Positions 24,757-41,774 of a stretch of 64,000 nt of DNA are shown here, piece after piece. The DNA lies in contig CAISZM010000003.1 of the NCBI GenBank assembly GCA_903889965.1, positions 54,834 through 118,833 on the forward strand, written 5' to 3'. This stretch comes from an uncultured Elusimicrobia bacterium (lineage in GTDB: Bacteria; Elusimicrobiota; Elusimicrobia; Elusimicrobiales; UBA9959). Within the stretch, counting starts at the first letter, position 1. The number at the start of each line of letters is the position of its first letter. The notes under the pieces are model-generated. The model searched no databases. It was not told the DNA's origin and saw nothing but the letters and a program-made list of their open reading frames with translations. The translations under genes and the position numbers were made by a program.

Positions 24757-24879
24757 GAGGCTGCTTTTACAGCTTCCCGGTAACGCCCCTGATCTTTAGC
24801 GGAAAAAAGAACTTATACCGCAGGATGCCGTGAAAAAAAGGGGGGGATACTATTGCCGCGGGGATTTACGCACGGTCAT

Positions 24880-25794
24880 TTACTTCGGCAATACTTTATC
24901 CGCGCCGTTTTGAGCCAGGGATTTTTTCAGCTCGTATGTCTTGCAGACGCAAAGGAACTCGTACAGCGCGTGCAGCCTGGCGAAGTAGTAGCCTTCCCAT
25001 CCGTCCAAGAAGCCCAACTGAACAACATATACATATAAGAACCTCAATAGCGGCCGCAAAGGCATATGTCTGCTGAGGTTTCTCAGCTTTCGTTTAACTC
25101 CGGTTTTATCGGCGGTGTTAGCCTTTGCGAAGGATTTTCGGCTATGATCTATCGCCACGCGGGCTTCCCAGTTAGAATATCGGTTATGCTTATTCACGAA
25201 AACGTCCACGGTAGGGAAGGCGTAGTGGTCTAGCCGGGAGCCTAGATACCCGGCCTTTCCCTTAAGGATGATATTTTCATGAACCTCGTTATCACCTGAA
25301 TCCGTCGCCATATCGGTAAGGGTTTCATAGCGGGCGAGGCCATGTTTGAACAGCCTTAATATCCAGTTGGGCTGGTAGGCATGTTTAAGCCATTTCCCCA
25401 TAAACATGAACCGCCGGTTAATGAAATATCCGTCGAATCCGCGGCTGTTGGAGCCGCAGACCTCGCGCAGTTCCTCTTCCGCGCCAGCCGGGAATGCCTC
25501 ATCCGCATCGAGTATAAGCACCCACTCATTGGATATGGGCAGGTTGTCTAGCGCCCAGTTTTTCTTTTTAGGGGAAATACCGGTAAATTTGAATTGAACG
25601 ACCTTGGCCCCGAAAGAACCCGCGATGGCCGCCGAATCGTCCGAACTTGCGGAATCGACTACGAATATCTCTTCCGCCCAGCGTACGGACTGAAGGCAGC
25701 GGGGCAGATTTTTTGCCTCGTTCAGAACGGGTATTATGACAGATAAAGGCACTTTCTTCACTTTATATTCCCCTGATTTTAGCGGCCAGACCAT
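24880..25794 (-). CDS. Glycosyltransferase family 2
   Basis: It has LSVIIPVLNEAKNL, VVDSASSDDS and LILDADE (DxD). Confidence 0.85.
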   Translation of the reverse strand: MVWPLKSGEYKVKKVPLSVIIPVLNEAKNLPRCLQSVRWAEEIFVVDSASSDDSAAIAGSFGAKVVQFKFTGISPKKKNWALDNLPISNEWVLILDADEAFPAGAEEELREVCGSNSRGFDGYFINRRFMFMGKWLKHAYQPNWILRLFKHGLARYETLTDMATDSGDNEVHENIILKGKAGYLGSRLDHYAFPTVDVFVNKHNRYSNWEARVAIDHSRKSFAKANTADKTGVKRKLRNLSRHMPLRPLLRFLYVYVVQLGFLDGWEGYYFARLHALYEFLCVCKTYELKKSLAQNGADKVLPK

Positions 25795-26117
25795 TCATAG
25801 CGGTCATGAGTGACATTACGGTTTTTTAAAAAAGATGTTCCGCATTTGTTGATGTCCTGCAATTCGGCTTTGTTTTGAAGGTCCACGCGGCAATTCCTGC
25901 CCACGGGACTTTTGCCGCCGGTATATTATATCTTATTGGAAATCAGGACAGTTTAGCGAGGGAAGCACCTCCGCTACCGTCTGCCCGGAACCCATATAAA
26001 CGGGGGAGCAAAGCCGCTGCAAAGTCCGCAATCTTACCGATAAACGGCCCGCGCCATGGCCAGGAACAAAGCTGGGAGCACTTCCTGTCAGCGGTACGGA
26101 TATATTAAGCCTCAAAG

Positions 26118-27521
26118 TCATTTATGGTCTAACTTAGCTGGCGCACCAGGCAGGACTGCCCGCTTATCGGGCGTCTTGCTCCCGGCAGGGGAATCCCCGC
26201 TCGTAACACTTTTAGCAACCTCCCGGGGTTTTGTCGCGGCAAGGCATAGACCGGCGCCGAATACCGCAAAACCCAAGATATTGGTCTGGCCGAATTGTCC
26301 CATCAGGACATTGGGCGCGCAGGCCCCAAAAAGCAGTATGGGCAGCATATTGTATTTACGCAGACTTTTGAAACTTTTAATGAACATAAAAAACACTATC
26401 CCTATCCGCAGGAGGATATAGGGCAGGCCAAACAATATACCTCCCTCCGCAAGACAGCGCATCCATTCGTTTTCAACCCACAAAACCCGCTTATCCCCCG
26501 TAAGCAACTGGGAAGCTGCGACAGTACCCATCCCTATGCCCACCCCAAGCAGAGGCGTTTCGTTCAGTGTCTTGTAGGCCTTTTGGAAATTACCGGTGAT
26601 GCGATCAAGGATACCAGCCTCTACGCCGCCGCCTTGTTCGAACCGCGCGCTGAGCACTTCGCTCCCCTCTTGAAATACGGGCATATATAGAACGGCTATT
26701 ACGAAAACGGCCGGGATCAGCAGGAATTTGAAAAACCTTATAAGGATCAGCGGCCGGACAATGACACTTCCCGCCGCGGCGCAAAGAACCATCACGGTTC
26801 CCACAACAAGGCTCCTGCTTCCTGAGACAGCCGCCGCGACCATAAAACTTATTCCCGCGAGCATAGCAAGGAACATGCTATACATCTTCTTTTCAGTGAT
26901 GCCATATACGAGAAAGGCGGCGGCCAAAGGGAAAAAAAGAGCCGGCCCCGTGCTGAAACTAAAAGTACCCGGGGGCCGCCCCTTTCCAAAGGCGGAGGCT
27001 AATTGGTCGTATTCACCGTTAACCCCCAGATTCCAGATACTGTATGGCCCGGATTGGAATTGCAGGACCATGAGAATGGCCATAGGGATAGACAGGAGAA
27101 GGAACCATTTTCCTATTTTCTCGACATCTTCCCGGGATAAGATCCTTGGCATGGCAAAAATAAGCGGAAGGTAAAGAAAATCCGCATGCAATCCGTACAA
27201 AGATACAAGAATATTGGTGGCAGGATTAATAAAGGACGAAAAGAAAGAAACGATGGCCAAGGCGATGAAGGCCGCCATATAATTATTGCTCGGCATCAGG
27301 CCGGCGCGGGAAGCCACAAAATAAAGCCACAGGAGCACAGGCGCCCTTACAAGCAGGAGCGGTTGGCTAAAGCCGGGGAACGCCCATTTCCTCAGGGCTC
27401 CTTCGAAAATGAGCAAAAGGAAAAAGAGCCATGTCAGGCGCTTAACCAGCCGTAACCTTCTTATCTTCGGATCAGGCCTTGCAGGCGCGGGGCCTGTTTT
27501 ATCCGCGGCTGTATTTTTCAT
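26118..27521 (-). CDS. O-antigen ligase/polymerase-like polytopic membrane protein (Wzy_C-type)
   Basis: It has roughly 10-12 TM segments, SGSRS followed by LLGVGIGMG, and a periplasmic loop ENEWMRCLAEGGILFGL. There is an ATGA overlap with the upstream GT4 gene. Confidence 0.65.
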   Translation of the reverse strand: MKNTAADKTGPAPARPDPKIRRLRLVKRLTWLFFLLLIFEGALRKWAFPGFSQPLLLVRAPVLLWLYFVASRAGLMPSNNYMAAFIALAIVSFFSSFINPATNILVSLYGLHADFLYLPLIFAMPRILSREDVEKIGKWFLLLSIPMAILMVLQFQSGPYSIWNLGVNGEYDQLASAFGKGRPPGTFSFSTGPALFFPLAAAFLVYGITEKKMYSMFLAMLAGISFMVAAAVSGSRSLVVGTVMVLCAAAGSVIVRPLILIRFFKFLLIPAVFVIAVLYMPVFQEGSEVLSARFEQGGGVEAGILDRITGNFQKAYKTLNETPLLGVGIGMGTVAASQLLTGDKRVLWVENEWMRCLAEGGILFGLPYILLRIGIVFFMFIKSFKSLRKYNMLPILLFGACAPNVLMGQFGQTNILGFAVFGAGLCLAATKPREVAKSVTSGDSPAGSKTPDKRAVLPGAPAKLDHK

Positions 27522-28759
27522 GGCCGAGCCCCGCCCAGTGCGTCCCGGACCGCAGCCACGATATCACTGTTATACCGCTGCCAGCCGCAAAGCGCCGCCT
27601 TCTTAACGGCTTGCGCGCTCATGTCGTCCAATCGTTCCCGGTCCATCAACAGTTCCAACTTTTCGACAATAGCTTCAGAAGAACGGATGGGCACGATAAA
27701 GCCATCAACTCCATCTTGGATGATGTCCGGACCGGCGGTGTTTGCCGTGGTTATCACCGGCAATCCCTGCGACATGGCCTCTAAGATCACAAGACCAAAA
27801 CCCTCGAATACAGATGGGAATATCAAAACATCGTGGCTTCGCATCTCTTTCAGAAGTTCTTCATGCGGCAAAGAGGGTATCCAGCGGTGACGTGACAGAG
27901 CGTCCTCCAGGGACTTGCAATACCCCAGGAAAAGCCTGGCGCCTACGACCGTCAACTCCACGCTGTCCCCCAATTTATCTACAGCCTTAAAAAGGTAGGA
28001 AAGGCCTTTGCGCTGTGTTAATAAGCCGACATACAACAAGCGAAGCTTTTTTTTACGGTCTTTAACCCCGGCCCCGACACAAGGGGCCGGCGCGCCGAAA
28101 TTTATAACTTTTATCAGTCCCTTAACGCCGGGCGCCATATCCAGGGTTCCCTTTACAAAACTCCCCGGGATAATGATAGTATCCGCCAGGCTAAGCTCCT
28201 CGTCTTTCCGCTCCAGTTTCTCCTTACTGTCGGAAAGTCCGGTCAGGGTCGGGGCCCATTCGGGTTCGAGCACCGCTTCTTCGGCGTAGATCTTCTGGGC
28301 AGCGCGGTAATAACCGATGGGAAGGTCGTAAATGCATTTTATGCCCCGCCTGCTGGCTTCCCTGAAAGTTTCAAGGGCTCCGTCTTCATAGGCATAAACG
28401 GCCTGCAGGTCCGGAAAATGACCCAGATTGCGCGAGACCCAGAGATCAAAATTACGATAGACCGCGTCTATGGATAAAACCCCGCGTTCATGCTTCATCA
28501 GGGAGTTTAATTTCAACCGTAAAGCCAGCAATCTGCAGGATTCTCTTAAAGGAAGCGTCTTTGTCCGGCTCAAAAGCTGGCCCGGGAAAGAACGTTTTTC
28601 CAAGATTCCGCGGATGTACGACGGAAGAAATCTGTTAAGCCAGGCCCCCGTATGCCAGGCGATGCACGTGTCAAACTCAGCCAGCAGATCTGCTTCCGCC
28701 AGGGCCAAAGCCGCACTGCGGACGAATTCATTTCCTGTCGGATGGCTTAAAATTATCAT
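27518..28759 (-). CDS. Glycosyltransferase family 4 (GT-B)
   Basis: It has the C-terminal PSVFEGFGLVILEAMSQGLPVITT (E-x7-E). The start is set at MIILSHPTGNEF, with GGAAGAG upstream. The track start at 28921 adds about 54 unlikely residues. Confidence 0.8.
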   Translation of the reverse strand: MIILSHPTGNEFVRSAALALAEADLLAEFDTCIAWHTGAWLNRFLPSYIRGILEKRSFPGQLLSRTKTLPLRESCRLLALRLKLNSLMKHERGVLSIDAVYRNFDLWVSRNLGHFPDLQAVYAYEDGALETFREASRRGIKCIYDLPIGYYRAAQKIYAEEAVLEPEWAPTLTGLSDSKEKLERKDEELSLADTIIIPGSFVKGTLDMAPGVKGLIKVINFGAPAPCVGAGVKDRKKKLRLLYVGLLTQRKGLSYLFKAVDKLGDSVELTVVGARLFLGYCKSLEDALSRHRWIPSLPHEELLKEMRSHDVLIFPSVFEGFGLVILEAMSQGLPVITTANTAGPDIIQDGVDGFIVPIRSSEAIVEKLELLMDRERLDDMSAQAVKKAALCGWQRYNSDIVAAVRDALGGARP

Positions 28760-29140
28760 TCCAGATCTCTTCCGACCATCCTCCGGAATACGTATACCTG
28801 TCATTGTCCCCCGCGACATGAATATGCGACCAAAACATTGAACACCGTATGATATCTGGACAGCCACACTGATTCTAACATTTTCCAAAAGAGGCTTGTC
28901 TGCAAAGTCTTCGAACAACACCCGCAGTTGACCCCGGCTTCAATCTTTTACGTATTTTACCCGCCTCCTAAGTGTATCCGGACTTCTCGGCTCACACCTT
29001 AAAATTGATTCCTAGGTCGAATAATTATAAAAATGTTAAGATTACGCCACGCGGCTTTTGGACGCAAAGCTGTTTCAGGCAATACGGATACTCGTCTAAC
29101 CGGAAATCGCGAGAGGGCCATTAAACAGCCGACAAATTCC

Positions 29141-30088
29141 ATGATGCATACTATCGTAATCAATAAATTGAAAGAACTGAAAGGGAAAAAAGTCTATTTC
29201 GAGCCGCTTGCCGGGAACAACGGCGACAATTTAATGAGACTGGGGGCCATGGTTTTATTTAAAGAACTTGGCTTAGACTTGGTTGATGATATTAGTAAAG
29301 CCGAAACTGTTGTGGTAAGCGGCAATGGCGATTTAACTATCCATCCGAAAAACAAGCCGATAGAAAAAAGCCTGTTGGGTTTGGCGCTATTAAAGTATAA
29401 AGATCTCCCCGTGATAGTTCTTCCCTGTTCCTGCATAGCCTCAAATGCGAAAAGGCTTTCAGATATATTTAATCTTCGTACCGGATCCACAACAATAATA
29501 GCCAGGGATGAAATATCTTATTCCCTTTTTCGAGAATTCGCCCCAGCCAATGTCGAAGTTTACGTTGATCACGACATGTCTTTCGCGTTAATCGGGAGTG
29601 ACTGGTTAAATGACGTGAAAAAGCGAATATCCAACAACAGTTTGTTGGTCGTTGAGAGATTCGACGCTGAAAGAGCTACAAAGCCGCCTGGTGTTTTCAG
29701 GATACCTGTTTTATTCAGATCTCTTGTTCCGAATAGCTTAAAAAATTTAATAAAGAAAAGGGCGCTTGGCGCCGTATATGGGAATACCCCTTTCGTTACG
29801 GAAGCGATCTCGAAGGCAAGGGAGCATTTTCCCTCTCTAAACTATAATGTCGTGAAAACCGGGGATATCAGCCTGCCCCAAAATTACAGTTTTGAATCTT
29901 TTGTCGCTGAGATAGCCAATGCTTCGGCGGTGGTATCCACCCGCATGCACGTATGTATTATGGCCGCTTTGTTGGGAAAACCCTTTATAGCAGTTCAGTT
30001 CGAGGGCGGCCATAAAGTGTCCGCTCTCTTCGAAAAATCATTGCAAAAATTACCAAATGCCAGGCTCTGGATAAAAAGACCCGTATAA
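29141..30088 (+). CDS. Polysaccharide pyruvyl transferase-like protein
   Basis: It has the N-terminal AGNNGDNLM and the C-terminal TRMHVCIMAALLGKPFIAVQF, the pattern I associate with CsaB/WcaK-type enzymes. The start is set at MMHTIV. Confidence 0.6.
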   Translation: MMHTIVINKLKELKGKKVYFEPLAGNNGDNLMRLGAMVLFKELGLDLVDDISKAETVVVSGNGDLTIHPKNKPIEKSLLGLALLKYKDLPVIVLPCSCIASNAKRLSDIFNLRTGSTTIIARDEISYSLFREFAPANVEVYVDHDMSFALIGSDWLNDVKKRISNNSLLVVERFDAERATKPPGVFRIPVLFRSLVPNSLKNLIKKRALGAVYGNTPFVTEAISKAREHFPSLNYNVVKTGDISLPQNYSFESFVAEIANASAVVSTRMHVCIMAALLGKPFIAVQFEGGHKVSALFEKSLQKLPNARLWIKRPV

Positions 30089-30132
30089 TGACACACGCAC
30101 CGCTAATATTCAGCCGCTTTTCATCAAATTAA

Positions 30133-31230
30133 ATGCTCCGCAACGAAAACCCAAAGCCTTCGATCCTGGTATTTGTCACCCGACACCTGCCTATAGGCGG
30201 TATAGAAAGCCATATCATCGGGTTTTGCCGTAATATGGCGCGGTCGGGCACGGCAGTGGACCTGATAGTGCTTAATTCCGAAATGCTGCCGGGAACTGAA
30301 AGGCTTTACAGGCAAACCTGCAGAAACGTTTACCTGGGAAGATTGAAACGTTCAAGATTGCGCCTGATATGGCTTTTCTTCATATGCATGAGGATCCGGC
30401 GCGTTAATTATACGGCTCTGTATACCAATGGTCAGGGTAAAAGCATCTGGTTTATCGCCCACCTTTTACGCGCCAAACTATGGGTGCATCACCACCACAC
30501 TTCCGGAGACGCAAGCGATCAGGCGACCTGGGACAAGCTATATAAAAAAGCGCTTTTAAAAGCGGACAAGGTGATATCATGCTCCCGCACAACCGCTGGA
30601 AACATGCGCCAATCACTTAAAAGAGACGTAGATGTTATGCCTCCCTTTTCCCGGAAACTTGCGGTGTTTCATCATAATTACCATGCCACTAAGTCAAAAT
30701 TAAATTTCGGATATTATGGCAGGCTTATACCGGAGAAGGGGATAGATCTGCTTTGCCGCCTTAGCGAAGACTGCAGATCCGAAAATATAGAATTTCATAT
30801 TTGGGGAGAAGGGAATCGTTACCCGCGGTCATATTTCACAAGATTTTCAAACTTAAAATACCATGGCACTTTTAGTGGTGAGTCTGAGCAGTCAAAGGCC
30901 GTTGGAATGCTAGATGCCTTCCTGCTGCTGTCAACTCATCCGGAGGGGTTGCCCGTTAGTTTATTGGAGGCGATGAGCGCGGGCCTTCCCTGGCTTGCGA
31001 CAGATAAAGGCGGAGTCTCAGATATTGCTTTTGATCCCGTATCTACAAGAATTTTATCTTCCGTGTCGAATTACTCTGAGGTGCTTAATGCGGTCGTGTC
31101 ATTCGCAAAAGATATCAGAGCCGGGATCGTTTCGAGAGAAAGCCAGATAAGTTTGTATGAAAAGAACTTTTCACCTCATGTGCTTCTGGCACAATGGGAA
31201 AGAGTTTTGGGTATAGATAGCCGGGAATAG
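30133..31230 (+). CDS. Glycosyltransferase family 4 (GT-B)
   Basis: It has YGRLIPEKG and STHPEGLPVSLLEAMSAGLPWLATDKGG (E-x7-E). Confidence 0.8.
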   Translation: MLRNENPKPSILVFVTRHLPIGGIESHIIGFCRNMARSGTAVDLIVLNSEMLPGTERLYRQTCRNVYLGRLKRSRLRLIWLFFICMRIRRVNYTALYTNGQGKSIWFIAHLLRAKLWVHHHHTSGDASDQATWDKLYKKALLKADKVISCSRTTAGNMRQSLKRDVDVMPPFSRKLAVFHHNYHATKSKLNFGYYGRLIPEKGIDLLCRLSEDCRSENIEFHIWGEGNRYPRSYFTRFSNLKYHGTFSGESEQSKAVGMLDAFLLLSTHPEGLPVSLLEAMSAGLPWLATDKGGVSDIAFDPVSTRILSSVSNYSEVLNAVVSFAKDIRAGIVSRESQISLYEKNFSPHVLLAQWERVLGIDSRE

Positions 31231-31306
31231 ATATTTTCGCTGGCGGGGCAGCGCATCGGACTTTTTCAACCCGGGAAGAATCTAAAAGCGGTCCGGGCTA
31301 CCCCGG

Positions 31307-32404
31307 CTATCGCAAGGCCCTGAGGATCGCCGCGAAAGCGGCGGCATGCGCCGCGAGATCATGCCCCCGGTACCACTTATAAGCATTGTCCGCTATCATC
31401 TGGGCTTTAACAATATCCAGTAGTCCTTCATTGCCCGCCGCCCAATAGTGCTCTCCGCCTAAGAGCCCGTCCACAACCCCGGCGCAGGCGCTGCTATTGA
31501 TCGGCAAAAGTCCGTGCGCGCAATAGGCGGCGAAAACACCCGACTTCCCGAGAAAATACGGATTGGCATCAGAGAATCCAGCCAGCGAAGCCGCCATTAT
31601 ATCGCTCACCGCCTGCGCGTTTAGCGCTCCGATCTCCCGGATCTTTAACCCGGCAGGGTTTGGCAATGTAATACCCGTCGACGGGCCGATGTCCATGACT
31701 TCTTCAATGCCAAGCTGCCGGCAGGAATCGATAACCCTCCCGAAGCCTCTCAGGTAGAGCCGTTTGCGTCTTGGCGCCCCGCCGAATATCACCATGCGCC
31801 GCGCGCGCTTATCCAAACGTGGCACGTCGCGCGGCTCACCGATATTGGAAAAAACCGGCAACGCCGGCACGCCGGAATGCACCCCCCCGCTCAAGAGCCC
31901 GATTTCGTCGCTATAAGATCGTTTGCTTGTAATACAGCGGTCGCTCATTTTCATCAAGCTTGCGGCTATCGATTGCTGGATAGGGGACAGCCAGAATTCG
32001 CTCTTCCACACCGGACCGGTGGCGTATATTTCATGGAACATCGTTATGGCTCTGGACGACGCGTCTCCCGATCTCCATTCGCGCAAGCCTTTGATAAGCC
32101 AGAATGGACAGCCCCGCCTTGCAAAGCCGTAGCCGCTGTAATGCAGCAATACCGGCACCCGGCAGGCCGACAGGGCCGCGGAGAGGTCTGAACCGGTGCG
32201 GGCGGACACTTTCCGGACGAGAAAGCCTTCCAGCTCCGGGGGGCCCTGCCAGGCGGGATCGCCGACAAGAAAGTTCGTGACGATCCCGAAATCCTCCCTG
32301 AGCTTCCGGGCAAGATTCAGGGCGTAATCTCCCAGGCCGTTTACAGAGGGCGGGAAGCCGGGCACGAGCTGAACAATAAATTTTGATCCGAGATTTTCTT
32401 CCAT
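31307..32404 (-). CDS. GT-B-like putative glycosyltransferase
   Basis: The N-terminal SVNGLGDYALNLARKL resembles the GT4/GT5 glycine-rich start, and the size and two-lobe layout fit. No clear E-x7-E motif is present. Confidence 0.45.
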   Translation of the reverse strand: MEENLGSKFIVQLVPGFPPSVNGLGDYALNLARKLREDFGIVTNFLVGDPAWQGPPELEGFLVRKVSARTGSDLSAALSACRVPVLLHYSGYGFARRGCPFWLIKGLREWRSGDASSRAITMFHEIYATGPVWKSEFWLSPIQQSIAASLMKMSDRCITSKRSYSDEIGLLSGGVHSGVPALPVFSNIGEPRDVPRLDKRARRMVIFGGAPRRKRLYLRGFGRVIDSCRQLGIEEVMDIGPSTGITLPNPAGLKIREIGALNAQAVSDIMAASLAGFSDANPYFLGKSGVFAAYCAHGLLPINSSACAGVVDGLLGGEHYWAAGNEGLLDIVKAQMIADNAYKWYRGHDLAAHAAAFAAILRALR

Positions 32405-32439
32405 ATCCGTGGCGGCCCCGTATCGTACGATTGACGCGG

Positions 32440-32638
32440 TTATTCCCCTCCGTGCGCGCGGTAAAGCAGCGTTTTGGCCGCGTTCTTAAGTTTAAACCGC
32501 ATCCCGGTAAACCAATAAAGAAGGGGGCCGAAGCCACGATTCATAAGCCAGGTCCTTGCATGCACCGCGAAGTTAAAGCCTCCCAGCTCCAGAAAAGCCC
32601 TCCTGGTTATAAGTGGGTATGCAGACCGCTGTTTTCAT
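32440..32638 (-). pseudogene. Relic of a family-2 glycosyltransferase gene
   Basis: MKTAVCIPTYNQEGF (a GT2 N-terminus) stops after 21 codons. The +1 frame continues FLELGGFNF..., which resembles a GT2 C-terminal region. The catalytic middle is missing. Confidence 0.35.
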
Positions 32639-33019
32639 GAGGATTTTCCCGTTGAACCGAACTGCCGGGCCTGGCGGCCTTTGACCGCCCAAAACTCCGC
32701 CGATCGCGGACTTAGCCGTTGCCGGAAAAACATACCTGCCGCGCGCAAATGGCTTATGAGCGCCAGAAAAGCGGAAAAACGTTTTGTCAGGTTCATTGTT
32801 TACGGTTCGGGGAACGTTCTGCCGACTTACGAAAAACAACAAGGCTATTTTACGACTTTTTATCGTATATTGGTGAAAAATGTACACTTCGTCTCTTTAT
32901 AACGGTGGATGTTCTTTCCGAACGGATCATGAACCCGCGGAATGGTACAATAACCGTGTAAAGATGAGGGATGAAACAAGTGGCGCCAGCCTATCGTAGC
33001 CTGCTTTACTGGAGAATGT

Positions 33020-33751
33020 ATGGGTCTTGCGAACGATCTTGAAAACTATATCAACAGAAAGAGACTTAAAAATAAAGATTTCACTATCATCTGCAACAAT
33101 TGCTACGCCGGATTTATATACAGCGAACTGGGCCTTATGTATACGACCCCGTTCGTCGGTCTCGGAATGTACACGCCCTGCTTTTTGCGGATGTTAAAAG
33201 ACCCGAAGCGATATTTGTCCGGTAAAATCGAGTTTATCAAAACTTCCATTTATCCGGAAAGGAATGAGATACGGAAGAACAACCCGTATCCTATCGGCCT
33301 GATAGGCGGGGATGCGGAAGTCCACTTATCACATTATTCCAGCGAGGCGGAGGTCAGGGAAAAATGGGCCAGGAGGATAGCTAGAATAAACTGGAACAAT
33401 ATTTTCGTGATAATGGATGACCGCCTGGGATTTGAAGTCAAATATCTTGAAGAATTCGACAGACTCGACTTTCCGCGCAAAATCTGTTTTACGAGCAAAT
33501 ATTATAAAGGCATTAAGTCCGCGGTCTGGTGCAGGGAATACGAGAACCAGGCCTCGATTGACGGCCCTTTTGTGTTCGTTAAAACGTCCAAAAATGACTT
33601 CGATATCGTGGAGTGGCTTAACGGCGGAGATATCCGTATCGGGTTTTGCCGGAAAATAATAAACCGCCTGTTTTCATGGATCCATCTGTTCGGGTATAAT
33701 GTCAGGATATTTTCCATGATCAGGGAACGGGCTTGCCGGGTAAAAAAATGA
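33020..33751 (+). CDS. DUF1919-type exopolysaccharide-locus protein
   Basis: FTIICNNCYAGFIYSELGLMYTTPFVGL is the N-terminal pattern I associate with DUF1919. A GGAGA sits upstream of the ATG. Confidence 0.7.
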   Translation: MGLANDLENYINRKRLKNKDFTIICNNCYAGFIYSELGLMYTTPFVGLGMYTPCFLRMLKDPKRYLSGKIEFIKTSIYPERNEIRKNNPYPIGLIGGDAEVHLSHYSSEAEVREKWARRIARINWNNIFVIMDDRLGFEVKYLEEFDRLDFPRKICFTSKYYKGIKSAVWCREYENQASIDGPFVFVKTSKNDFDIVEWLNGGDIRIGFCRKIINRLFSWIHLFGYNVRIFSMIRERACRVKK

Positions 33752-34671
33752 AAACATCTATATGTACGCTTTTTGAAAACGATTACCACCTTGGTCTGGC
33801 GGGACTGGCCAATTCCCTTTGCCGGCATGGGTACCGCGGCGTGATCTGGGCCGGCTACCGAGGTGAACTGCCGCCCTGGGCGAAACCATTAAAGGACTGC
33901 GGCGGGTACCATGAACTTTCAGTGGCGGATGGGTGCCGGCTCCGGTTCGTCCCTCTAAAGACAGCTCTGCACTTCTGCCTTTACAAACCAGCTTTCATGA
34001 TGGACCTGTTGCGGGCATATCCGCAGGAAATGGATGCGCTGGCTTATTTCGATCCCGACATCGTAGTTAAATGCGAATGGGCTTTCTTCGAAAAATGGCT
34101 TTCCCATGGCGTCGCACTTTGTGAAGACGTGAATTCCCCTGTTCTTGCCAGCCATCCGATCCGGTGCGAGTGGAAGAAGTATTTCGAACCGCACAACTTC
34201 AAGTTCAGGAACGACCTCGATCTCTATGCCAATTCCGGTTTTGTAGGCGTCCAGGCTAAAGATATATCCTTCCTGGAGGCATGGCAGGCCGTTATCGGTG
34301 TTATCGAAAAAATGCTGGGGATGCCCGATTCGCGCCAGTCCGCGCCGCGTCCATTTTTATTCGCGTCGCAGGACCAGGACGCGCTTAATGTCGCCTTGAT
34401 GTGCACGGAACAACCCGTGAGCCTTATAGGGAAAGAGGGCATGGATATCGTTTACGGCGGGTTCACGATGTCACACGCACTTGGAAGTCTCAAGCCGTGG
34501 CGGCGGAGATACGTACTGGACTTGATCTTAAAGCGGAAAGCGGCGGGCTTGGCGGATACCCAATACTGGAAATATGCCGATTCCCCTTTACACCCATACT
34601 CAGGAATATCGCTCCGTCTCAGAAAGGCGGACCTCCTGCTGGCTAAGATCTTAAGCAGGCTGATAAAATAG
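33748..34671 (+). CDS. GT8-like nucleotide-sugar glycosyltransferase
   Basis: There is an ATGA overlap with the DUF1919 gene. It has YFDPDIVV (DxD), NSGFVGV and QDQDALNVAL, which resembles the GT8 DQDxLN motif. Confidence 0.55.
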   Translation: MKTSICTLFENDYHLGLAGLANSLCRHGYRGVIWAGYRGELPPWAKPLKDCGGYHELSVADGCRLRFVPLKTALHFCLYKPAFMMDLLRAYPQEMDALAYFDPDIVVKCEWAFFEKWLSHGVALCEDVNSPVLASHPIRCEWKKYFEPHNFKFRNDLDLYANSGFVGVQAKDISFLEAWQAVIGVIEKMLGMPDSRQSAPRPFLFASQDQDALNVALMCTEQPVSLIGKEGMDIVYGGFTMSHALGSLKPWRRRYVLDLILKRKAAGLADTQYWKYADSPLHPYSGISLRLRKADLLLAKILSRLIK

Positions 34672-34715
34672 CCGACAGCGAACGCGGTAGTTTTGTCCGT
34701 ATAAAGAGGGAAATT

Positions 34716-35282
34716 ATGTTATTTCAGAAAGCCTTTTTCAGGCTGCGCGGCTATTTTTCCGTCGCGGCGTCGTTTTTGAGAAAATTATGGTGGAGTATGC
34801 AGGGTTTAAGGGTCGGAAAGGGGACAGTTCTGCCTTCCTGTAACATAACCTGGCCTCACCAGGTGAGCCTGGGAAACGATTGCCGGCTTGAACCGAACAT
34901 ATTTTTTAAATTTGACGGGCCCTGGAAGCCGGGCCCCTCTATTGTAATAGGGAACGATGTATTCATCGGCAGGGGGTGCGAATTCAATATCAGGGAAAAT
35001 ATCCACATAGGCAACAACTGCCTTATCTCTTCTGAAACCAAATTTATCGACCATAATCATGGCACCGAGATAGGGAAACCCATGAACCGTCAAGCCTGTC
35101 CAGGGACCCCGATAGTTCTTGAAGAAGATGTCTGGATCGGAGTTAATACGGTAATCCTAAAAGGGGTACGTATCAGCAAAGGCGCGGTAGTGGGAGCCGG
35201 GGCCGTGGTCACCAGCTCCATCCCTTCAAATGAGATATGGTGCGGCGTACCTGCCAAAAAGATCGGAGCCCGTAAGCCGTGA
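34716..35282 (+). CDS. Hexapeptide-repeat (LbH) O-acetyltransferase
   Basis: It has tandem hexapeptide turns (IGNDVFIGRGCEFNI, IHIGNNCLIS, VWIGVNTVILKGVRISKGAVVGAGAVV) and the C-terminal WCGVPAKKIG. Confidence 0.8.
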   Translation: MLFQKAFFRLRGYFSVAASFLRKLWWSMQGLRVGKGTVLPSCNITWPHQVSLGNDCRLEPNIFFKFDGPWKPGPSIVIGNDVFIGRGCEFNIRENIHIGNNCLISSETKFIDHNHGTEIGKPMNRQACPGTPIVLEEDVWIGVNTVILKGVRISKGAVVGAGAVVTSSIPSNEIWCGVPAKKIGARKP

Positions 35283-36904
35283 CGTGTATTATAGTACACG
35301 AACAGTACAATATCGGCCATATCTGTACCCGCCTGCAATGCGAGCGGGGACTCGGGGCTAAAACGGCATTCCGATGGATATCCGCGCACCAGGAGCGTGT
35401 CGATTACAGTTTTGCCGATCTTGACCGGGAATCCAGCAAGTTCTCCACCATCCTGCGGTCTCTCGGTTTTGCGCGCGGAGACATTCTGTTCACCTTCCTG
35501 CCCAAAATTCCCGAACAGTTCTTTTGTTTTTTGGGGGCATTAAAACTTCAGGCCATTTGCGGCACATTATTTTCCAGTTTTGGCGACGAAGCTATCGTGG
35601 ATAGGCTGGGAGATGCGGGGGCCAAAGGCCTGGTGACCAAAAAGAGCCTGCTTAAAAAGATAGCGCGCGTCCGCGGCCAGCTTCCGCAACTGAAATATAT
35701 AATCGTAGTAGATATTGAAGAACACATTTCAGATGATGTTCTTAGCTATCCTGCGCTGATGCGCAAGGCATCCTCCGATTTTACGGCCCCGCTGACCGCG
35801 CCCGATACCCCCTCTGTGCTGCACTACACCTCCGGTTCCACCGGCAAACCCAAAGGTGTGCTGCATGTTCACCGGAGCGTGCTGCACCAGAGCCGGACCG
35901 CGCGGGAAGTGCTGCAGTTGACGGGCTCCGATATTTTCTGGTGCACTGCCGACCAAGGCTGGGTTACCGGTACGGCTTATGGCATTATCGGCCCCTGGAG
36001 CCTCGGCATTACACAGGTCCACTACGGCGGCGGCTATGACGCCAAACTCTGGCTCGATCTTCTTGAAAGAGAAGCCGTTACCGTTTGGTACTCTGCCCCG
36101 ACCGCCCTTCGTATGCTGATGAGAGAAGACGCCAAGCTTTACATGGGTTATAAGCTGGGCTCGCTACGGCATATCTTCAGCGTGGGTGAGCCTCTCAATC
36201 CCGAAGTGATCAGCTGGGCGCGCGCCACGCTCGGAAAAAGTATTTATGACACCTGGTTCCAGACCGAAACCGGCGGCATCATGATCAGCAACCGTCCCGG
36301 ACTTGAGATCAGGCCCGGATCGATGGGGAAGCCGGTCAACGGGATCGAGGCCGCGATTATCGCCGATAACGGTGAAGTGCTCGGTAGCGGCCGGCAGGGA
36401 GCCCTCTGCCTGAAATCCGGCTGGCCGTCCATGTTTATCTCATATCTGAACAATGACACGATTTACAACCAAAAATTCCACCATGAGTATTACCACACCG
36501 GGGACACGGCGGTTCGTGACAGCGACGGTTATTACTGGTTCAAGGGGCGCAGTGACGATATCATAAACACCGCCGGTCACTTAATAAGCCCTTTTGAGAT
36601 AGAGAGCGCCCTGCTTGAGGTAGAAGAAGTTGCCGAAGCCGGAGTGATAGGGGCACCGGATGCTCTTCTGTTCGAAAAGGTGGTCGCTTTCGTCTGCCTC
36701 CACAAACAATATGACTGGTCCAAGGAGTTGGAAGTTAAGATTAGGCTTTATGTAAGCAATAAGGTTTCGTCAATGGCGACCCCGCAGGAGATCGCTATAG
36801 TTGATAGTATTCCCAAGAATAAAAGCGGAAAGATAATGCGGCGGGTCCTCAGGGCCCGCTATCTGGGGCAGGATGCCGGTGACATTTCCACAATGGAGGA
36901 TTAA
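35279..36904 (+). CDS. Adenylate-forming ligase, acetyl/short-chain acyl-CoA synthetase-like
   Basis: The GTG start overlaps the previous stop (GTGA). Motifs seen are YTSGSTGKPKGV, DTWFQTETGG, YHTGD, GRSDDIINTAGHLISPFEIESAL and KNKSGKIMRRVLRA. Confidence 0.85.
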   Translation: MTCIIVHEQYNIGHICTRLQCERGLGAKTAFRWISAHQERVDYSFADLDRESSKFSTILRSLGFARGDILFTFLPKIPEQFFCFLGALKLQAICGTLFSSFGDEAIVDRLGDAGAKGLVTKKSLLKKIARVRGQLPQLKYIIVVDIEEHISDDVLSYPALMRKASSDFTAPLTAPDTPSVLHYTSGSTGKPKGVLHVHRSVLHQSRTAREVLQLTGSDIFWCTADQGWVTGTAYGIIGPWSLGITQVHYGGGYDAKLWLDLLEREAVTVWYSAPTALRMLMREDAKLYMGYKLGSLRHIFSVGEPLNPEVISWARATLGKSIYDTWFQTETGGIMISNRPGLEIRPGSMGKPVNGIEAAIIADNGEVLGSGRQGALCLKSGWPSMFISYLNNDTIYNQKFHHEYYHTGDTAVRDSDGYYWFKGRSDDIINTAGHLISPFEIESALLEVEEVAEAGVIGAPDALLFEKVVAFVCLHKQYDWSKELEVKIRLYVSNKVSSMATPQEIAIVDSIPKNKSGKIMRRVLRARYLGQDAGDISTMED

Positions 36905-36906
36905 TA

Positions 36907-37143
36907 ATGGAATTACAGGACAGATTAAACAAGGTTTTCCGTGAGGTGTTCGATGAGGACGATATCAACATCACTCCCGGGACAACGGCAAATGATATAG
37001 ACGGCTGGGATTCCCTGTCGCATGTGAACCTGATCGTCGCTATTGAGACAAAATTCGGGATCAGGTTCTCCCAAAAGGAACTGCTTACATTTAAAAATGT
37101 CGGCGATATGCTCAACAGTATCCGCAGTAAGCTGAAACCTTGA
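36907..37143 (+). CDS. Acyl/peptidyl carrier protein
   Basis: 78 aa. The phosphopantetheine site is DGWDSLSHV. It starts 2 nt after the ligase stop. Confidence 0.85.
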   Translation: MELQDRLNKVFREVFDEDDINITPGTTANDIDGWDSLSHVNLIVAIETKFGIRFSQKELLTFKNVGDMLNSIRSKLKP

Positions 37144-37152
37144 CCCCGCATT

Positions 37153-38608
37153 ATGCCATTCAACTCTCTTCAATACTTCCTTTTTTTACCGTTCATTTAC
37201 CTGTTATTTTATTTTGCGGGCGACCGGACGCGGTGGTTCGTGCTGCTGGCAGCAAGTCTCCTGTTCTACGCGGCGTTGGATGTTCCTTACTTGCTGGCGA
37301 TTTTGACGCTGGTCGTCGTCACGACCTATTGCTTCGGCATATTCGCGGGGCGGGCTAAAACCACGAAGGGCAAACTGTGGATGTTATGGGGCGGAATAGC
37401 GGCTAATGTCCTTGTCCTGGTTGCCATGAAATATCTGCCTTTCGTCTCGGCAAACCTGAACGCGCTGGCGTCGCTTTTTTCCGTTAATGCCCAGATCCAG
37501 CCGGTCAAAGCCTTGGTTGCAATAGGGGTTTCTTTTTATGTTTTCCAGGCCATCTCCTATCTGATCGATATCTACCTTGAAATTACAAAACCGGAGCCGC
37601 ACTTGGGCTACTTCGCCCTATCCCTCGCATTTTTTCCAAAATTGCTGCAGGGGCCTATCGAGCGGTCCGGCGACCTGCTGCCGCAGCTGAAGGCGAAATA
37701 TGAGTTCAATTATGAGAATATGCGTTTTGGCCTGCTGCTGTTCGCCTGGGGGGCTGTTCAAAAAAGTTGTGATTGCTGACCGTCTCGGCCTCTTTGTTGA
37801 CGCCGTTTATGACAATGTCCACGGCTTCACTGGCTTGCCGCTGCTGGTGGCCACCTACGCCTATTCATTCCAGATCTATATGGATTTTTCGGGCTATACT
37901 GACATGGCGCTCGGCAGCGCGTGGCTTTTCAATATTAACCTGACACAGAACTTCAACAGTCCCTACCTTGCCGCGTCGGTGGCCGATTTCTGGCGGCGCT
38001 GGCATATCAGCTTTTCCCGCTGGCTGTTCGACTATCTTTTTAAACCTCTGCAGATGCATTGGCGCGACTGGAAGACCCTGGGTACCGCCGCCGCGCTTTT
38101 CGTCACCTTCCTTATTTCGGGGCTCTGGCATGGGGCAAGCTGGGGGTTTGTGGCGTGGGGGCTTTTGCACGGAGCGTATCTGGCCTGTTCCGTTTTCTAC
38201 AGGCCCTACCAGAAAAAACTGCATGCCACCCTGGGGCTTGCGAAAACCAGGCTTCTGGCCCGCTGGCAGATATTCGCGACATTTAACCTTGTAAGCTTCG
38301 CGTGGATATTTTTCAGGGCGAATAGCGGGCGGCAGGCTTTATATATTATTTCGCACATATTCAGCGATTGGCACTGGGCCCGCTTCAGATTCGATATTCC
38401 ATTCGAGCATGAAAATCTTGTTTTAACAGGACTATCTCTCCTGGGTTATTTTTTAATCACACATCACCTTACCGGGGGGAAAAGCATCCTGGATTTAAGC
38501 CGCACAAACGGATTTTACGGGTATCTCATGTGCAGCACACTGCTTTTAATGATTTTTTTATTAGGCAATTATTATCAAACTAAAAGTTTCATCTACTTCC
38601 AATTCTGA
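37153..38608 (+). pseudogene. MBOAT-family membrane O-acyltransferase (DltB/AlgI-like), interrupted by a +1 frameshift in a G6 tract
   Basis: ORFs 37153..37779 and 37700..38608 are the N- and C-terminal parts of one MBOAT. Deleting one G from 37748-37753 gives the continuous sequence FAWGLFKKVVIADRL. The catalytic His context WRRWHISFSRW is in the second part. Confidence 0.8.
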
Positions 38609-38723
38609 CCCATGAGAATATTAGTCCGGCAGATAATTCTTATCACATTGCCGACACTGATTCGTTTAAAGAGCTGATTGCAGACCCTGTCACGCGAAAA
38701 ACTTTGCGGATTTATGGCGGCAC

Positions 38724-39737
38724 ATGAAAAATAAAACTCTGATATTTATTTTCTGGACATTGCTCTGCGGATTGCTCCTTGCCGCTGTAGAAGATTACTT
38801 AAAAGTATGGGGCGAGGGGCGGCTGCCAGCGAATGTGATATACTCGGGATTAAAAAATGCCCCAGAAGTGTTAATTTTCGGGAACTCCAGGGCCAAGGCA
38901 GGGATAATACCCGAAGTTCTCCGGCCGGCATTTCGCAAGTCAGGATGCCGCAATGACCGGATTTACAATATTGCTATGGGCGGAACGAAGATATCGGTCC
39001 AATATTTCGTATTAAAAAAGCTAATTGGCACGGGGTGGAAACCGAAATATCTTATTTATGGCTTTGTTGATAACGAATTGACCCAAACCGATATTGCCAA
39101 TGATTATTCTCTGGCAGAGGTCATTCAGTGGCGCAATCTTGCGGAAGTGCTTGAGGCTGGCGGCTTTTCGTCGAAGGAGCGTGATGATGATATCGATCTG
39201 GTCTTTAGGAAACTGAGCCGTGTTTGGCGATATAGAGAAATCATACGCGATGTGCTTATTAAGCAATGGCTTCTCCATCAGAATGTGGCAAATGCGAAGA
39301 CAGACATGGGTCAAGATGGGTTTCAGGATTACAGGGATATTGTGCGCAAGACAACCGTAAAATTATTAAAAGTATCAGAAGGTGCGACTTTAACAGAACT
39401 GCGCCAAGACAATAAAGCCTGGGACTTCAAACCCGAGGGAACATATTTGGATAAGGTAGTGCAATTATGTTCCGCTAATAATATCAAGCTCCTATTTGTT
39501 CATATGCCGGTGACCGGGCTGCATAGAAAAGATATAAGCGGCGAGTGCGCCTGGTGCGGCGGTTATTCCAATAGTCTTCTGGGTTACCTCAAAAAAAAGG
39601 GGGTTGTGCTTCTTGATTTAAAGGATGCCGTCCCGGATGAAGATCTGCCGGATACCATGCATTTGTCCTTGGAAGGGGCTGGAAAGTTCTCGAAGATATT
39701 GGCGCAGAAGATCAGCGAACTGGGAATAGTGCCATGA
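38724..39737 (+). CDS. N-anchored DltD-like / SGNH-like protein
   Basis: It has an N-terminal TM anchor, a block-I-like FGNSRA (Ser), a block-V-like DTMHL (DxxH) near the C-terminus, and sits directly after the MBOAT. Confidence 0.5.
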   Translation: MKNKTLIFIFWTLLCGLLLAAVEDYLKVWGEGRLPANVIYSGLKNAPEVLIFGNSRAKAGIIPEVLRPAFRKSGCRNDRIYNIAMGGTKISVQYFVLKKLIGTGWKPKYLIYGFVDNELTQTDIANDYSLAEVIQWRNLAEVLEAGGFSSKERDDDIDLVFRKLSRVWRYREIIRDVLIKQWLLHQNVANAKTDMGQDGFQDYRDIVRKTTVKLLKVSEGATLTELRQDNKAWDFKPEGTYLDKVVQLCSANNIKLLFVHMPVTGLHRKDISGECAWCGGYSNSLLGYLKKKGVVLLDLKDAVPDEDLPDTMHLSLEGAGKFSKILAQKISELGIVP

Positions 39738-40504
39738 AAAACAACTTTATTATTCCAGGCCTGGGTTTTGCCCTCTCAATCGCGTTTACAGCACTTTATC
39801 ATGCCCTGCCATCCCTATCGGCCGCCATCAGCGGAGCACCCGCCCCTCCCCATAATCCCACTGCCGCTGGCGTGCGCCGGGATACCGTTTATCCGATCAG
39901 CAAGATCAATGTGGTCATGTTGGGCGATTCGCTGACATTTAACGCTAATTGGAACAGGTTAATGGGAAGGATGGATATAGTTAATCTGGGCGTTCCGGGG
40001 GATACGACTGCCGGCATTTTACAGAGGCTGGAATATGTGTACGACCTCCATCCGAAGGTCTGTTTCATTATGGGCGGGATCAATGATATTTCTTCAGGGA
40101 GGACAGAAGACGAGATTATGGGGAGTTACAAAACAATTGTGGCGGGACTTAAGGAACACGGCATCATTCCCGTCGTCCAATCGACCTTATGCACGGCTAG
40201 GGACAACCCTGAGGTCCTGCGGTTGAATAAGCTGTTGCGTTCCTATTGCGCAGCCAATGGTATCGAATATGTCGACCTTAATGAATACATGTCACGCAAT
40301 GGCAGATTAATCGGTGATTATACCTGGGATGGCGTCCATTTATCCGACGCGGGTTACAATAAATGGGAGGAAAAAGTCCTGCCGCTGGTAAATGAATATG
40401 CGGATCATCAGGAGCGCCCTGCCGGGGCGGTCATTACGCAGCCCACCCCCTCCAATGATATCCGGAGCGGCGCACCGTCCCAAAAGATGGGCGCTCGCAA
40501 ATAA
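39734..40504 (+). CDS. SGNH/GDSL esterase-acyltransferase, exported
   Basis: There is an ATGA overlap with the upstream gene. It has VVMLGDSLT (block I), LGVPGDT (II), GGINDI (III) and DGVHLS (V). Confidence 0.8.
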   Translation: MKNNFIIPGLGFALSIAFTALYHALPSLSAAISGAPAPPHNPTAAGVRRDTVYPISKINVVMLGDSLTFNANWNRLMGRMDIVNLGVPGDTTAGILQRLEYVYDLHPKVCFIMGGINDISSGRTEDEIMGSYKTIVAGLKEHGIIPVVQSTLCTARDNPEVLRLNKLLRSYCAANGIEYVDLNEYMSRNGRLIGDYTWDGVHLSDAGYNKWEEKVLPLVNEYADHQERPAGAVITQPTPSNDIRSGAPSQKMGARK

Positions 40505-40800: not shown

Positions 40801-41433
40801 TCAGGGAACTTGCGCGGCCCCGTACGACTCTGACTGGCTCCAGCCAAAAGCCTCCGGGAACTCCGTATACGTAAGCAACTGAACCGCCGTTATCATCAGG
40901 AGGACAGCCCAAGCCATGTGAAATGAGCGGCGGCGCGAAACAAGATTCTCAGCCTTCAATATTACGGCCAGTATGAGGGTGGCGCACATCGGGGCGTGGC
41001 GGAACATCACCTGATGCCAAGCTTCTCCGTTCACGCGCCAGGCAAGCATAACGTACAGTACGCCGCATAAGGCAAACGCAAAAAGCGATGTGGCGACCCA
41101 GTTCCCGCTATTCCGGCCGGCCGGGTCCTGCCCGAGCCTGCTCAGACCCGCCGCGGCCAGAAGGCCCGCCATAGCCAGGAATACATAAAAGCCCCTGCGC
41201 GCGTCGAGGGCGGCGCTCATGCCATCGAGGCTCCATTCCCCCGGCATAGCGAATATTATGAACGGTATAGCGATAGCCGCGGCCAGCAGAGCCAGCGGTC
41301 CTATCAGCGCGGCGCCCCGGCCGGGCCGATCCATAGAATAAGCTTCGGCCGCACCCAGCACCAAAAACGCGGCTCCCTGCACCACGTGTATCAGCGTTGA
41401 GGCCCGGGAGAAACTGTCGTAATCAATGATCAT
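40801..41433 (-). CDS. Polytopic membrane protein (about 6 TM), hypothetical
   Basis: It has hydrophobic segments throughout. Its start overlaps the stop of the upstream 114-aa gene by 4 nt. Confidence 0.55.
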   Translation of the reverse strand: MIIDYDSFSRASTLIHVVQGAAFLVLGAAEAYSMDRPGRGAALIGPLALLAAAIAIPFIIFAMPGEWSLDGMSAALDARRGFYVFLAMAGLLAAAGLSRLGQDPAGRNSGNWVATSLFAFALCGVLYVMLAWRVNGEAWHQVMFRHAPMCATLILAVILKAENLVSRRRSFHMAWAVLLMITAVQLLTYTEFPEAFGWSQSESYGAAQVP

Positions 41434-41774
41434 TTTTTTCTTCCCTTTTTAACCCCGCCCCTCAGGTAAATATAAAGGCCGGCCAGCGCCGCGCCCACGA
41501 AGATCAACCACTGCGGTCTGAAAAAGCCGCTGTCCGGCGCCGTGGCCGGCGCTGAGGAAACCTGCACCGCGGCCGCGGCGGGAGCGGGGGCCGCCGGTCC
41601 CTTTTTCTCCGCGGCGGCGGCGCTGGCGGCGGCTTGAGCGGCTTCAAGGAAAGGCAATTGCTTTTTCGCGCCGTCCGAACAGGAACCTGAATTATTCTGG
41701 CAGTCGGCCGCGCCGGAGGGGGAGGGGAGGGCCGCGCAGAGCGGCAGAAGGAGGAGAAGAGCCGTTATTCTCAT
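41430..41774 (-). CDS. Ala/Pro-rich exported protein with C-terminal TM segment and basic tail
   Basis: A signal peptide and an AAxAA/PAPA low-complexity region are followed by WLIFVGAALAGLYIYL and RGGVKKGRKK. There is a 4-nt overlap with the nitroreductase gene. Confidence 0.5.
   Translation of the reverse strand: MRITALLLLLPLCAALPSPSGAADCQNNSGSCSDGAKKQLPFLEAAQAAASAAAAEKKGPAAPAPAAAAVQVSSAPATAPDSGFFRPQWLIFVGAALAGLYIYLRGGVKKGRKK

Follow-up and report, generated by a model that had tools for sequence, protein, structure and literature searches.

What does a bacterium with an outer membrane do with an adenylate-forming ligase and a small carrier protein that are encoded directly in front of an MBOAT acyltransferase? 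The question is raised by six genes in a stretch of 64,000 nucleotides of contig CAISZM010000003.1 (assembly GCA_903889965.1) from an uncultured Elusimicrobia bacterium, which is called here the window. The genes lie on the forward strand and encode, in this order, a hexapeptide-repeat (LbH) sugar O-acetyltransferase, a ligase related to acetyl-coenzyme A (acetyl-CoA) synthetase (Acs), a carrier protein, an MBOAT protein, an N-terminally anchored SGNH protein and an exported SGNH/GDSL hydrolase. A map of the open reading frames (ORFs) gave the order and spacing proposed in an earlier, sequence-only reading of the locus, i.e. a GTGA overlap, gaps of 2 nt, 9 nt and 115 nt, and an ATGA overlap; every motif quoted there was found in the ORFs, and all its family assignments were borne out by Pfam and NCBIfam searches. 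The MBOAT gene, taken in that reading as one ORF, is split by a frameshift in the window. The answer that we favour as fairly probable, judging from the sequences, is that the locus encodes a carrier-protein-dependent MBOAT-SGNH system which would O-acylate a cell-surface glycan, and which joins a front end of the Dlt type to a back end of the kind known from PatA/PatB and AlgI/J/X.

The ligase (35279-36904, strand +; Pfam AMP-binding and AMP-binding_C), a putative short-chain acid:[carrier protein] ligase, carries the adenylation motifs YTSGSTGKPKG, QTETGG and SGKIMRR. Its best match in NCBIfam is acetate--CoA ligase NF003313 with 684 bits, below the equivalog cutoff of 729; its top 25 matches are acyl-CoA ligases and do not include DltA, while the model of the amino-acid adenylation domain reaches only 150 bits (cutoff 317). 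It can be aligned over the full length, at 46% identity, with the Bacillus subtilis AcsA-type structure 9g79 from the PDB (E 3e-144), and it is 36% identical to Acs of Salmonella enterica. The claim that the enzyme resembles Acs rather than DltA is supported both by the NCBIfam profiles and by the matches to solved structures.

The residues of S. enterica Acs were mapped onto 84 members of the ligase clade. Of the four residues that form the acetate pocket, Val310, Thr311 and Val386 are retained, and the catalytic Lys609 is invariant (Lys518 in the window, codon 36830-36832, strand +). Three other positions have changed in nearly the whole clade, the window's ligase included: Trp414 is replaced by Phe in 80 of the 84 sequences (Phe327, codon 36257-36259, strand +), Arg526 by Leu in 83 (Leu435, codon 36581-36583, strand +), and Arg584 by Ser, Ala or Thr in all of them (Ser493, codon 36755-36757, strand +). 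The three solved Acs enzymes in the comparison (B. subtilis AcsA, S. enterica Acs and 8rpk) contain Trp at position 414, Arg at 526 and Arg/Lys at 584. The limit to short chains is imposed by Trp414, whose conservation among short-chain acyl-CoA synthetases is 100% (PMC10455477, PMC6122825). Arg526 stabilises the thioester-forming conformation, Arg584 touches CoA at its 3'-phosphate only, and both are highly conserved in Acs and kinetically important, their mutation impairing the CoA half-reaction (PMC10455477). Loss of Arg584 fits a switch of acceptor, because the phosphopantetheine arm of a carrier has no 3'-phospho-adenosine. The pocket argues for acetate or for an acid about one heavy atom larger; as judged from its residues, it should rule out long chains and lends no apparent support to an amino acid. 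The change of Trp to Phe may mean that the installed group is not acetyl but slightly larger, e.g. propionyl, glycolyl or lactyl.

The earlier reading expected an unusual donor route; the system is, however, no rarity. When one genome per GTDB species was scanned, 234 relatives of the ligase were obtained, and the best 80 of them, which carry the ligase signature and are 64-81% identical to the window's protein, were used for counts of loci. The hosts of these 80 are Geobacteraceae/Desulfuromonadales, Omnitrophota, Verrucomicrobiota, Lentisphaerota, Bacteroidota, Ignavibacteriota, Planctomycetota, Elusimicrobiota, Nitrospirota, Armatimonadota and an alphaproteobacterium, at least ten diderm phyla in all. 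A homologue of the carrier starts no more than 120 nt after the ligase stop codon in 69 of the 78 loci with room for it. Linkage to MBOAT was counted over the loci with at least 1.9 kb downstream, which also number 69: ligase, carrier and MBOAT are contiguous in 35 of them, a ligase-carrier pair is found with an MBOAT elsewhere in the locus in 19, an MBOAT occurs without an adjacent carrier in four, and neither is present in another four (58 loci have an MBOAT overall). Dozens of loci from many phyla thus share the order ligase-carrier-MBOAT, which is far beyond chance. The LbH gene (with homologues in about 5-14 of the 80 loci) and the second SGNH gene (with homologues in only 2), which had been counted as parts of the cassette, are not conserved members of the module, the former being accessory to it. 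The conserved core comprises four genes, not six: the ligase, a carrier with WDSLxH, an MBOAT with FxYxxF and an anchored DltD-like SGNH protein. Citrifermentans bremense, whose genome is complete, has the same genes as a stand-alone operon outside glycan clusters, at about 493,981-498,223 of AP023213.1, encoding a ligase of 540 aa, a carrier of 77 aa, an MBOAT of 482 aa and a DUF1574 protein of 308 aa.

These counts bear on an explanation in which the ligase is an ordinary acetyl-CoA synthetase that tops up acetyl-CoA for a PatA/PatB-like MBOAT-SGNH pair and for the LbH enzyme, while the carrier serves another purpose. The high similarity to AcsA (NF003313, 9g79) speaks for it, as the ligase has kept all the adenylation motifs, the catalytic Lys and most of the acetate pocket. 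Besides, MBOATs with a fused acyl-shuttle motif that have been studied so far take acetyl-CoA (PMC12148441), equivalent MBOAT-SGNH pairs without ligase or carrier exist, and the name acetyl-CoA synthetase is used in databases and in the genome paper of Geobacter metallireducens. However, the score remains below the family cutoff, Arg526, Arg584 and Trp414 are replaced across the clade (Phe, Leu and Ser at 414, 526 and 584 in the window), and a carrier gene placed 2-40 nt after the ligase in such a large majority of the loci is hard to explain unless the two proteins cooperate. The genes also lie in glycan loci rather than in contexts of acetate metabolism, and those relatives of the ligase that lack an MBOAT are still found among GT2, Wzy_C, WbsX and epimerase genes. 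We consider this explanation unlikely. The names given by the sources to the 120 closest ligase clusters are all 'acetyl-CoA synthetase', 'acetate--CoA ligase' or 'AMP-binding protein', and systematic misannotation of the clade as acetyl-CoA synthetase is probable.

The presumed partner of the ligase is a carrier protein of 78 aa (36907-37143, strand +; Pfam PP-binding, 28.8 bits) with the motif WDSLSH at residues 34-39 (37006-37023), in which Ser36 (codon 37012-37014) is the phosphopantetheine site. It scores 21.5 bits with the DltC model (cutoff 68) and is also below the cutoffs of generic acyl carrier protein models, and thus appears to be a carrier protein, not a DltC orthologue. WDSL[ST]H is present in 57 of 77 carrier ORFs from related loci. 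Among solved structures it is closest to 2LML, a 'putative acyl carrier protein' (E 1.2e-20) that also has WDSLSH and is 62-75% identical to the carriers found directly after the ligase in Geomonas and Desulfuromonadales loci. GmACP3 of G. metallireducens is reportedly a specialised carrier with a WDSLxH/N motif, which the window's WDSLSH matches, and a role in lipopolysaccharide (LPS) or lipid A with long-chain acids is said to have been proposed for it. We take GmACP3 to be gmet_2339, which adjoins Gmet_2340; 2LML and GmACP3 may come from a cassette of the present kind. A putative LPS role of GmACP3 is announced in the title of the paper that described it (Ramelot et al. 2011, Biochemistry 50:1442), in which part of the gene neighbourhood may already have been noted; work on these carriers reportedly dealt with the structure of the carrier alone. 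Gmet_2340 was named 'acetyl-CoA synthetase' in the genome paper of G. metallireducens and served as a basis for inferring better scavenging of acetate at low concentration. It is likely to be a member of the putative carrier-loading clade.

The MBOAT protein had to be reconstructed, since in the window one extra G in the run GGGGGG (37748-37753, strand +) shifts the frame by +1. Its N-terminal part is encoded at 37153-37779 (an ORF of 208 aa whose last ~8 codons are out of frame) and its C-terminal part at 37754-38608, in the frame of the 302-aa ORF 37700-38608 (Pfam MBOAT, 67.7 bits), both on strand +; dropping one G yields a protein of 484 aa. The reconstructed sequence matches the DltB model TIGR04091 over residues 2-387 with 167 bits (cutoff 375) and aligns with the DltB structures 8jem and 6bug (E 4e-25) up to residue 388 of 484, the catalytic His in WRRWHIS (codon 38003-38005) included. 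The last ~96 residues extend beyond DltB; they contain two extra hydrophobic helices and end with SFIYFQF directly before the stop codon, where FIYFQF (38588-38605) represents the FxYxxF acyl-shuttle motif. The motif is terminal in 63 of 72 MBOATs from related loci; eight of the other nine are truncated and one ends with YIYFQF, which is the sole exception among the full-length proteins. DltX and PatA both receive the acyl group on the Tyr of FxYxxF, and PatA, AlgI and WssH are MBOATs that carry the motif themselves, fused on two extra helices (PMC12148441), so that the window's protein, with its invariant His and a fused motif on two such helices, has the features of the PatA/AlgI/WssH type. 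The sequence-only reading had seen in this locus the Dlt layout (ligase and carrier) combined with that of PatA/AlgI; this combination holds, and the fused motif makes it tighter than was thought. A DltX-like microprotein in the 115-nt gap after the MBOAT gene was also considered and rejected: the sole ORF there (38612-38677, strand +), a hydrophobic micro-ORF of 21 codons with the sequence MRILVRQIILITLPTLIRLKS, has no FxYxxF and is probably not a gene.

In related loci the MBOAT gene is almost always followed by one for an N-anchored SGNH protein, 300-430 aa long, that has Gly-x-Ser past the anchor and, frequently, Asp-x-x-His near the C-terminus. In the window it is found at 38724-39737 (strand +), and its product has one N-terminal hydrophobic helix, Ser55 in a GNS motif (38886-38888, strand +), and Asp310 (39651-39653, strand +) and His313 (39660-39662, strand +) in DTMH. 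Profiles recognise it poorly: DUF1574 matches with 27.7 bits (cutoff 29.1) and the C-terminus of DltD with 22.7 bits (cutoff 150), and individual members of the family match AlgX, DUF1574, GDSL or DltD models. A word-index search with this protein returned itself and one relative only, while an exhaustive search found 3 representatives at E <1e-30 and 285 at <1e-3; the family evolves fast. Two independent alignments show Gly53 and His313 to be invariant and Ser55 to be conserved in at least 90% of the sequences; the 46 sequences aligned for modelling are just 11-20% identical to the window's protein. A confident AlphaFold model built from that alignment (pLDDT 87.9) was compared with the PDB by Foldseek, and its top matches were DltD structures from Enterococcus and Streptococcus (6pfx, 6o93, 3bma; E 7e-6 to 3e-4), ranked above generic GDSL hydrolases. 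By analogy with DltD, this protein is proposed to be the final acyltransferase. In several loci of Geobacteraceae and Desulfuromonadales (L015, L033, L037 and L054), two or three pairs of MBOAT and anchored SGNH genes accompany a single ligase-carrier pair, and one supply of acyl-carrier may feed several transferases with different acceptor sites.

Could the cassette then be a plain Dlt or Alm homologue, which decorates a surface polymer with an amino acid, either D-alanine or glycine? It follows the same four-part logic of adenylating ligase, small carrier, MBOAT with the invariant His and an anchored SGNH protein of DltD-like fold; FxYxxF is common to both, the order ligase-...-MBOAT-...-SGNH is comparable, the MBOAT and the anchored protein match no NCBIfam models other than those of DltB and DltD, and DltD heads the Foldseek list. 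Nevertheless, we consider such a homologue very improbable. In Dlt systems the acid is activated by a D-alanine ligase, whereas the window's enzyme is a relative of acetyl-CoA synthetase with an acetate-like pocket, DltA is absent from its best matches and the amino-acid adenylation model stays far below cutoff. None of the models of DltB, DltC and DltD comes near its cutoff either, and the shuttle motif is borne by the MBOAT's C-terminus rather than by a separate DltX. The Dlt system D-alanylates teichoic acids in Gram-positive bacteria, and the hosts of the cassette are diderms without teichoic acids. Ligase-carrier pairs that decorate the diderm envelope, as would be the case here, are known from AlmEFG, which puts glycine on lipid A of Vibrio cholerae, and from the dra locus of Bordetella; AlmE and DraA are, however, amino-acid ligases of the DltA type, and AlmG is an LpxL-type acyltransferase, not an MBOAT, with lipid A as its target.

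The closest counterparts of the back end are the systems for peptidoglycan (PatA/PatB, with or without Ape1), alginate (AlgI/AlgJ/AlgF/AlgX) and cellulose (WssH/WssI/WssF/WssG). They share with the cassette the fused FxYxxF, an SGNH partner encoded beside the MBOAT, the possibility of an extra SGNH protein that acts as an esterase (Ape1) or as a second transferase (AlgX), diderm hosts and a surface polymer as the target. They differ from it in using acetyl-CoA directly, with no ligase or carrier, where the window has a tightly linked ligase-carrier pair.

Starting from what is directly observed, namely gene content, linkage, conservation of motifs and residues, and fold, we infer the chemical steps, the acid and the acceptor as follows. 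The ligase would adenylate a small carboxylic acid, either acetate or one atom larger, as its adenylation motifs and Acs-like pocket suggest, and would then transfer it as a thioester to the phosphopantetheine arm of the adjacent carrier, not to CoA, in keeping with the gene linkage and the two lost Acs arginines. By analogy with DltB/DltX and PatA, the acyl-carrier would dock at the cytoplasmic face of the MBOAT, whose His would pass the acyl group to the Tyr of FIYFQF on the outer face. From the acyl-Tyr the group would move, again by analogy, to Ser55 of the anchored DltD-like SGNH protein, and then form an ester on the glycan. The exported SGNH hydrolase may trim or reposition this ester, and the LbH enzyme would add a separate acetyl group, derived from acetyl-CoA, in the cytoplasm.

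Several observations weigh against a carrier-fed system of this kind. With 46% identity to a genuine acetyl-CoA synthetase, the ligase could still make acyl-CoA. The contact of Arg526 in Acs is with the phosphate of the adenylate, not with CoA, and its loss would seem to mark a release from the constraints of Acs and to be no signature of carrier loading; Arg is retained at this position in DltA and in the adenylation domains of nonribosomal peptide synthetases. The match of the anchored SGNH model to DltD is moderate, with a TM score of about 0.4, and the MBOAT gene is frameshifted in the window. On a probable cyanobacterial contig (L084:8437-11041), an MBOAT of 462 aa ending with QQFIYFQF is followed by the closest relative (36% identity) of the window's DltD-like protein, and no ligase or carrier is encoded within 10 kb; that MBOAT lends itself to comparison as to what fits such proteins for a carrier. 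The MBOAT of the cassette has therefore no obvious need for a carrier, because pairs of the same architecture exist without ligase and carrier and because the fused-motif MBOATs studied so far work on acetyl-CoA; some of these otherwise ordinary MBOAT-SGNH pairs have the ligase-carrier pair as an add-on, which is the main argument against such a need. Conversely, seven of the 69 loci have a ligase-carrier pair and no MBOAT, so the acyl-carrier may have other consumers, and in one locus (L029:4261-6894) the order is ligase, carrier and LbH acyltransferase, with no MBOAT, which hints that the acyl-carrier also serves a cytoplasmic hexapeptide-repeat acyltransferase.

The last two cases lead to the explanation that the acyl-carrier goes to a cytoplasmic acyltransferase, such as the LbH enzyme, or to acylation of lipid A or LPS, with the MBOAT-SGNH pair as an independent neighbour. 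LpxA and LpxD, which use acyl carrier proteins as donors, offer the analogy for an LbH enzyme as the consumer. The LbH gene of the window (34716-35282, strand +; Pfam Hexapep and Hexapep_2) overlaps the start of the ligase gene, and a putative LPS role stands in the title of the GmACP3 paper. On the other hand, LbH genes occur near the ligase in a small minority of loci, far fewer than those with an MBOAT, and the window's LbH protein is of the WcaF/WbbJ/maltose-acetyltransferase type: it scores 81 bits with the WcaF family and 75 bits with WbbJ in NCBIfam, both below cutoff, its best solved relatives are CoA-dependent O/N-acetyltransferases, and it resembles CoA-dependent sugar O-acetyltransferases, not LpxA or LpxD. 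A ligase pocket of Acs size is incompatible with long-chain acids, and the stand-alone operon of C. bremense contains the ligase, carrier, MBOAT and SGNH genes only. This explanation is, in our opinion, quite unlikely.

A further possibility is independent of these alternatives and concerns the activity in one strain: the frameshift may be real and the system a dead remnant in the window's genome. The window and a public contig of 145,937 bp both carry the G6 allele, the latter with the halves of the MBOAT called as two separate genes (P0002 and P0003). An intact, otherwise identical allele, with G5 (TGG GGG CTG, encoding Trp-Gly-Leu), is, however, present on two other public contigs, where it encodes the identical 484-aa protein (P0001). 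Homopolymers such as the one that holds the insertion are typical places for assembly errors; there are no further substitutions, the two halves translate exactly to the intact protein, and no further split genes were found among the few candidate genes examined. Neither allele of the G run was found in a scan of JGI metagenomes. A dedicated phase-variation tract was considered as well and rejected, as the run merely represents conserved Trp-Gly codons (TGG GGN) and is 3-6 long across 33 homologues. The MBOAT step is thus knocked out by the extra G in the window's assembly and intact in other assemblies. The extra G may be an assembly artefact or a real knockout at the level of the strain, and we hold a dead remnant to be possible, though somewhat doubtful.

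The last gene of the six (39734-40504, strand +; Lipase_GDSL_2, 87 bits) encodes the exported SGNH hydrolase, with Ser66 in GDSLT and His202 in DGVHLS. Among solved structures it is closest to sialate O-acetylesterases (7pzg and 6njc, E 2e-18), which suggests an accessory editing esterase, comparable to Ape1 of the PatA/PatB cluster; an AlgX-like second transferase is possible.

As for the host, a MacB-like protein encoded in the window (50769-52712, strand -) has named relatives that are 66-88% identical and all come from metagenome-assembled genomes of Elusimicrobiota, which are diderms; this makes the host a diderm, in agreement with the proposed outer membrane, and its lineage is poorly sampled. 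The cassette closes an island of low GC content (24800-40500 of the window, about 0.47-0.52, compared with 0.57-0.60 in the flanks) that contains a GT2 and two GT4 glycosyltransferases, a polysaccharide pyruvyl transferase, a DUF1919 protein and a Wzy-like membrane protein with 9-10 helices. The island lies between parAB and mutL/mutS and is therefore chromosomal. The glycan context suggested earlier stands insofar as the genes are at the end of a glycan-synthesis island, but the acceptor need not be the neighbouring glycan, as the module of C. bremense stands alone. The window's ligase is closest (81%) to genes of Omnitrophota and Geobacteraceae, though its host belongs to Elusimicrobiota, and this affinity together with the low GC content suggests that the island was acquired horizontally. 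Upstream of the LbH gene, the DUF1919 gene (33020-33751, strand +) and a gene for a 312-aa soluble protein without a family match (33733-34671, strand +) are co-directional and probably belong to the same operon as the cassette; both are also found upstream of the ligase in other assemblies. The polysaccharide pyruvyl transferase is encoded at 29033-30088, and the glycan may carry a pyruvyl ketal in addition to an acetyl group from the LbH enzyme and the carrier-derived acyl group. Besides the 312-aa protein, Pfam matches are lacking for a 365-aa soluble protein in the island (31307-32404, strand -) and, just downstream of the cassette (40801-41774, strand -), for a 210-aa protein with five hydrophobic helices and a 114-aa protein. 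Promoter and terminator scans of 32.3-41 kb gave results at chance level, and an Rfam scan of the window yielded no match.

All parts of the carrier-fed MBOAT-SGNH system are of known kinds; what is new is their combination, in which an MBOAT of the PatA/AlgI type is fed in the Dlt manner by means of an Acs-derived ligase. No description of a system with an Acs-like ligase, a carrier and an MBOAT was found in the full-text literature, where subscription journals are largely outside coverage; one apparent match, from Pseudomonas P482, was rejected as an ordinary alginate cluster. MBOAT/SGNH pathways other than Dlt have been generalised to have no carrier protein (PMC12148441), which the gene content of the module contradicts. 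If our interpretation is true, the module would be a natural hybrid that breaks the split drawn in that work between Dlt, with a carrier and a separate DltX, and the rest, with acyl-CoA and a fused motif, and carrier feeding would be no peculiarity of Gram-positive bacteria or of amino acids. It would then have to be asked why ATP and a dedicated carrier are spent instead of acetyl-CoA; insulation from the acetyl-CoA pool and a non-acetyl group are possible reasons. The wide occurrence makes the module less of a curiosity and more useful as a system for study, with culturable hosts for testing (Citrifermentans, Geomonas and G. metallireducens) and a solved carrier structure from the family (2LML). 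The 'acetyl-CoA synthetase' of Geobacter and of many other genomes, which has been used in arguments on acetate physiology, would turn out to be an enzyme of glycan decoration, and should Gmet_2340 belong to the clade, the inference of acetate scavenging in G. metallireducens would need another look. More generally, and only tentatively, we suggest that the module may represent a third route to acylation of envelope polymers, shared by many diderm phyla, in which an Acs-derived ligase that no longer serves CoA would make a short-chain acyl-carrier for MBOATs of the PatA/AlgI type.

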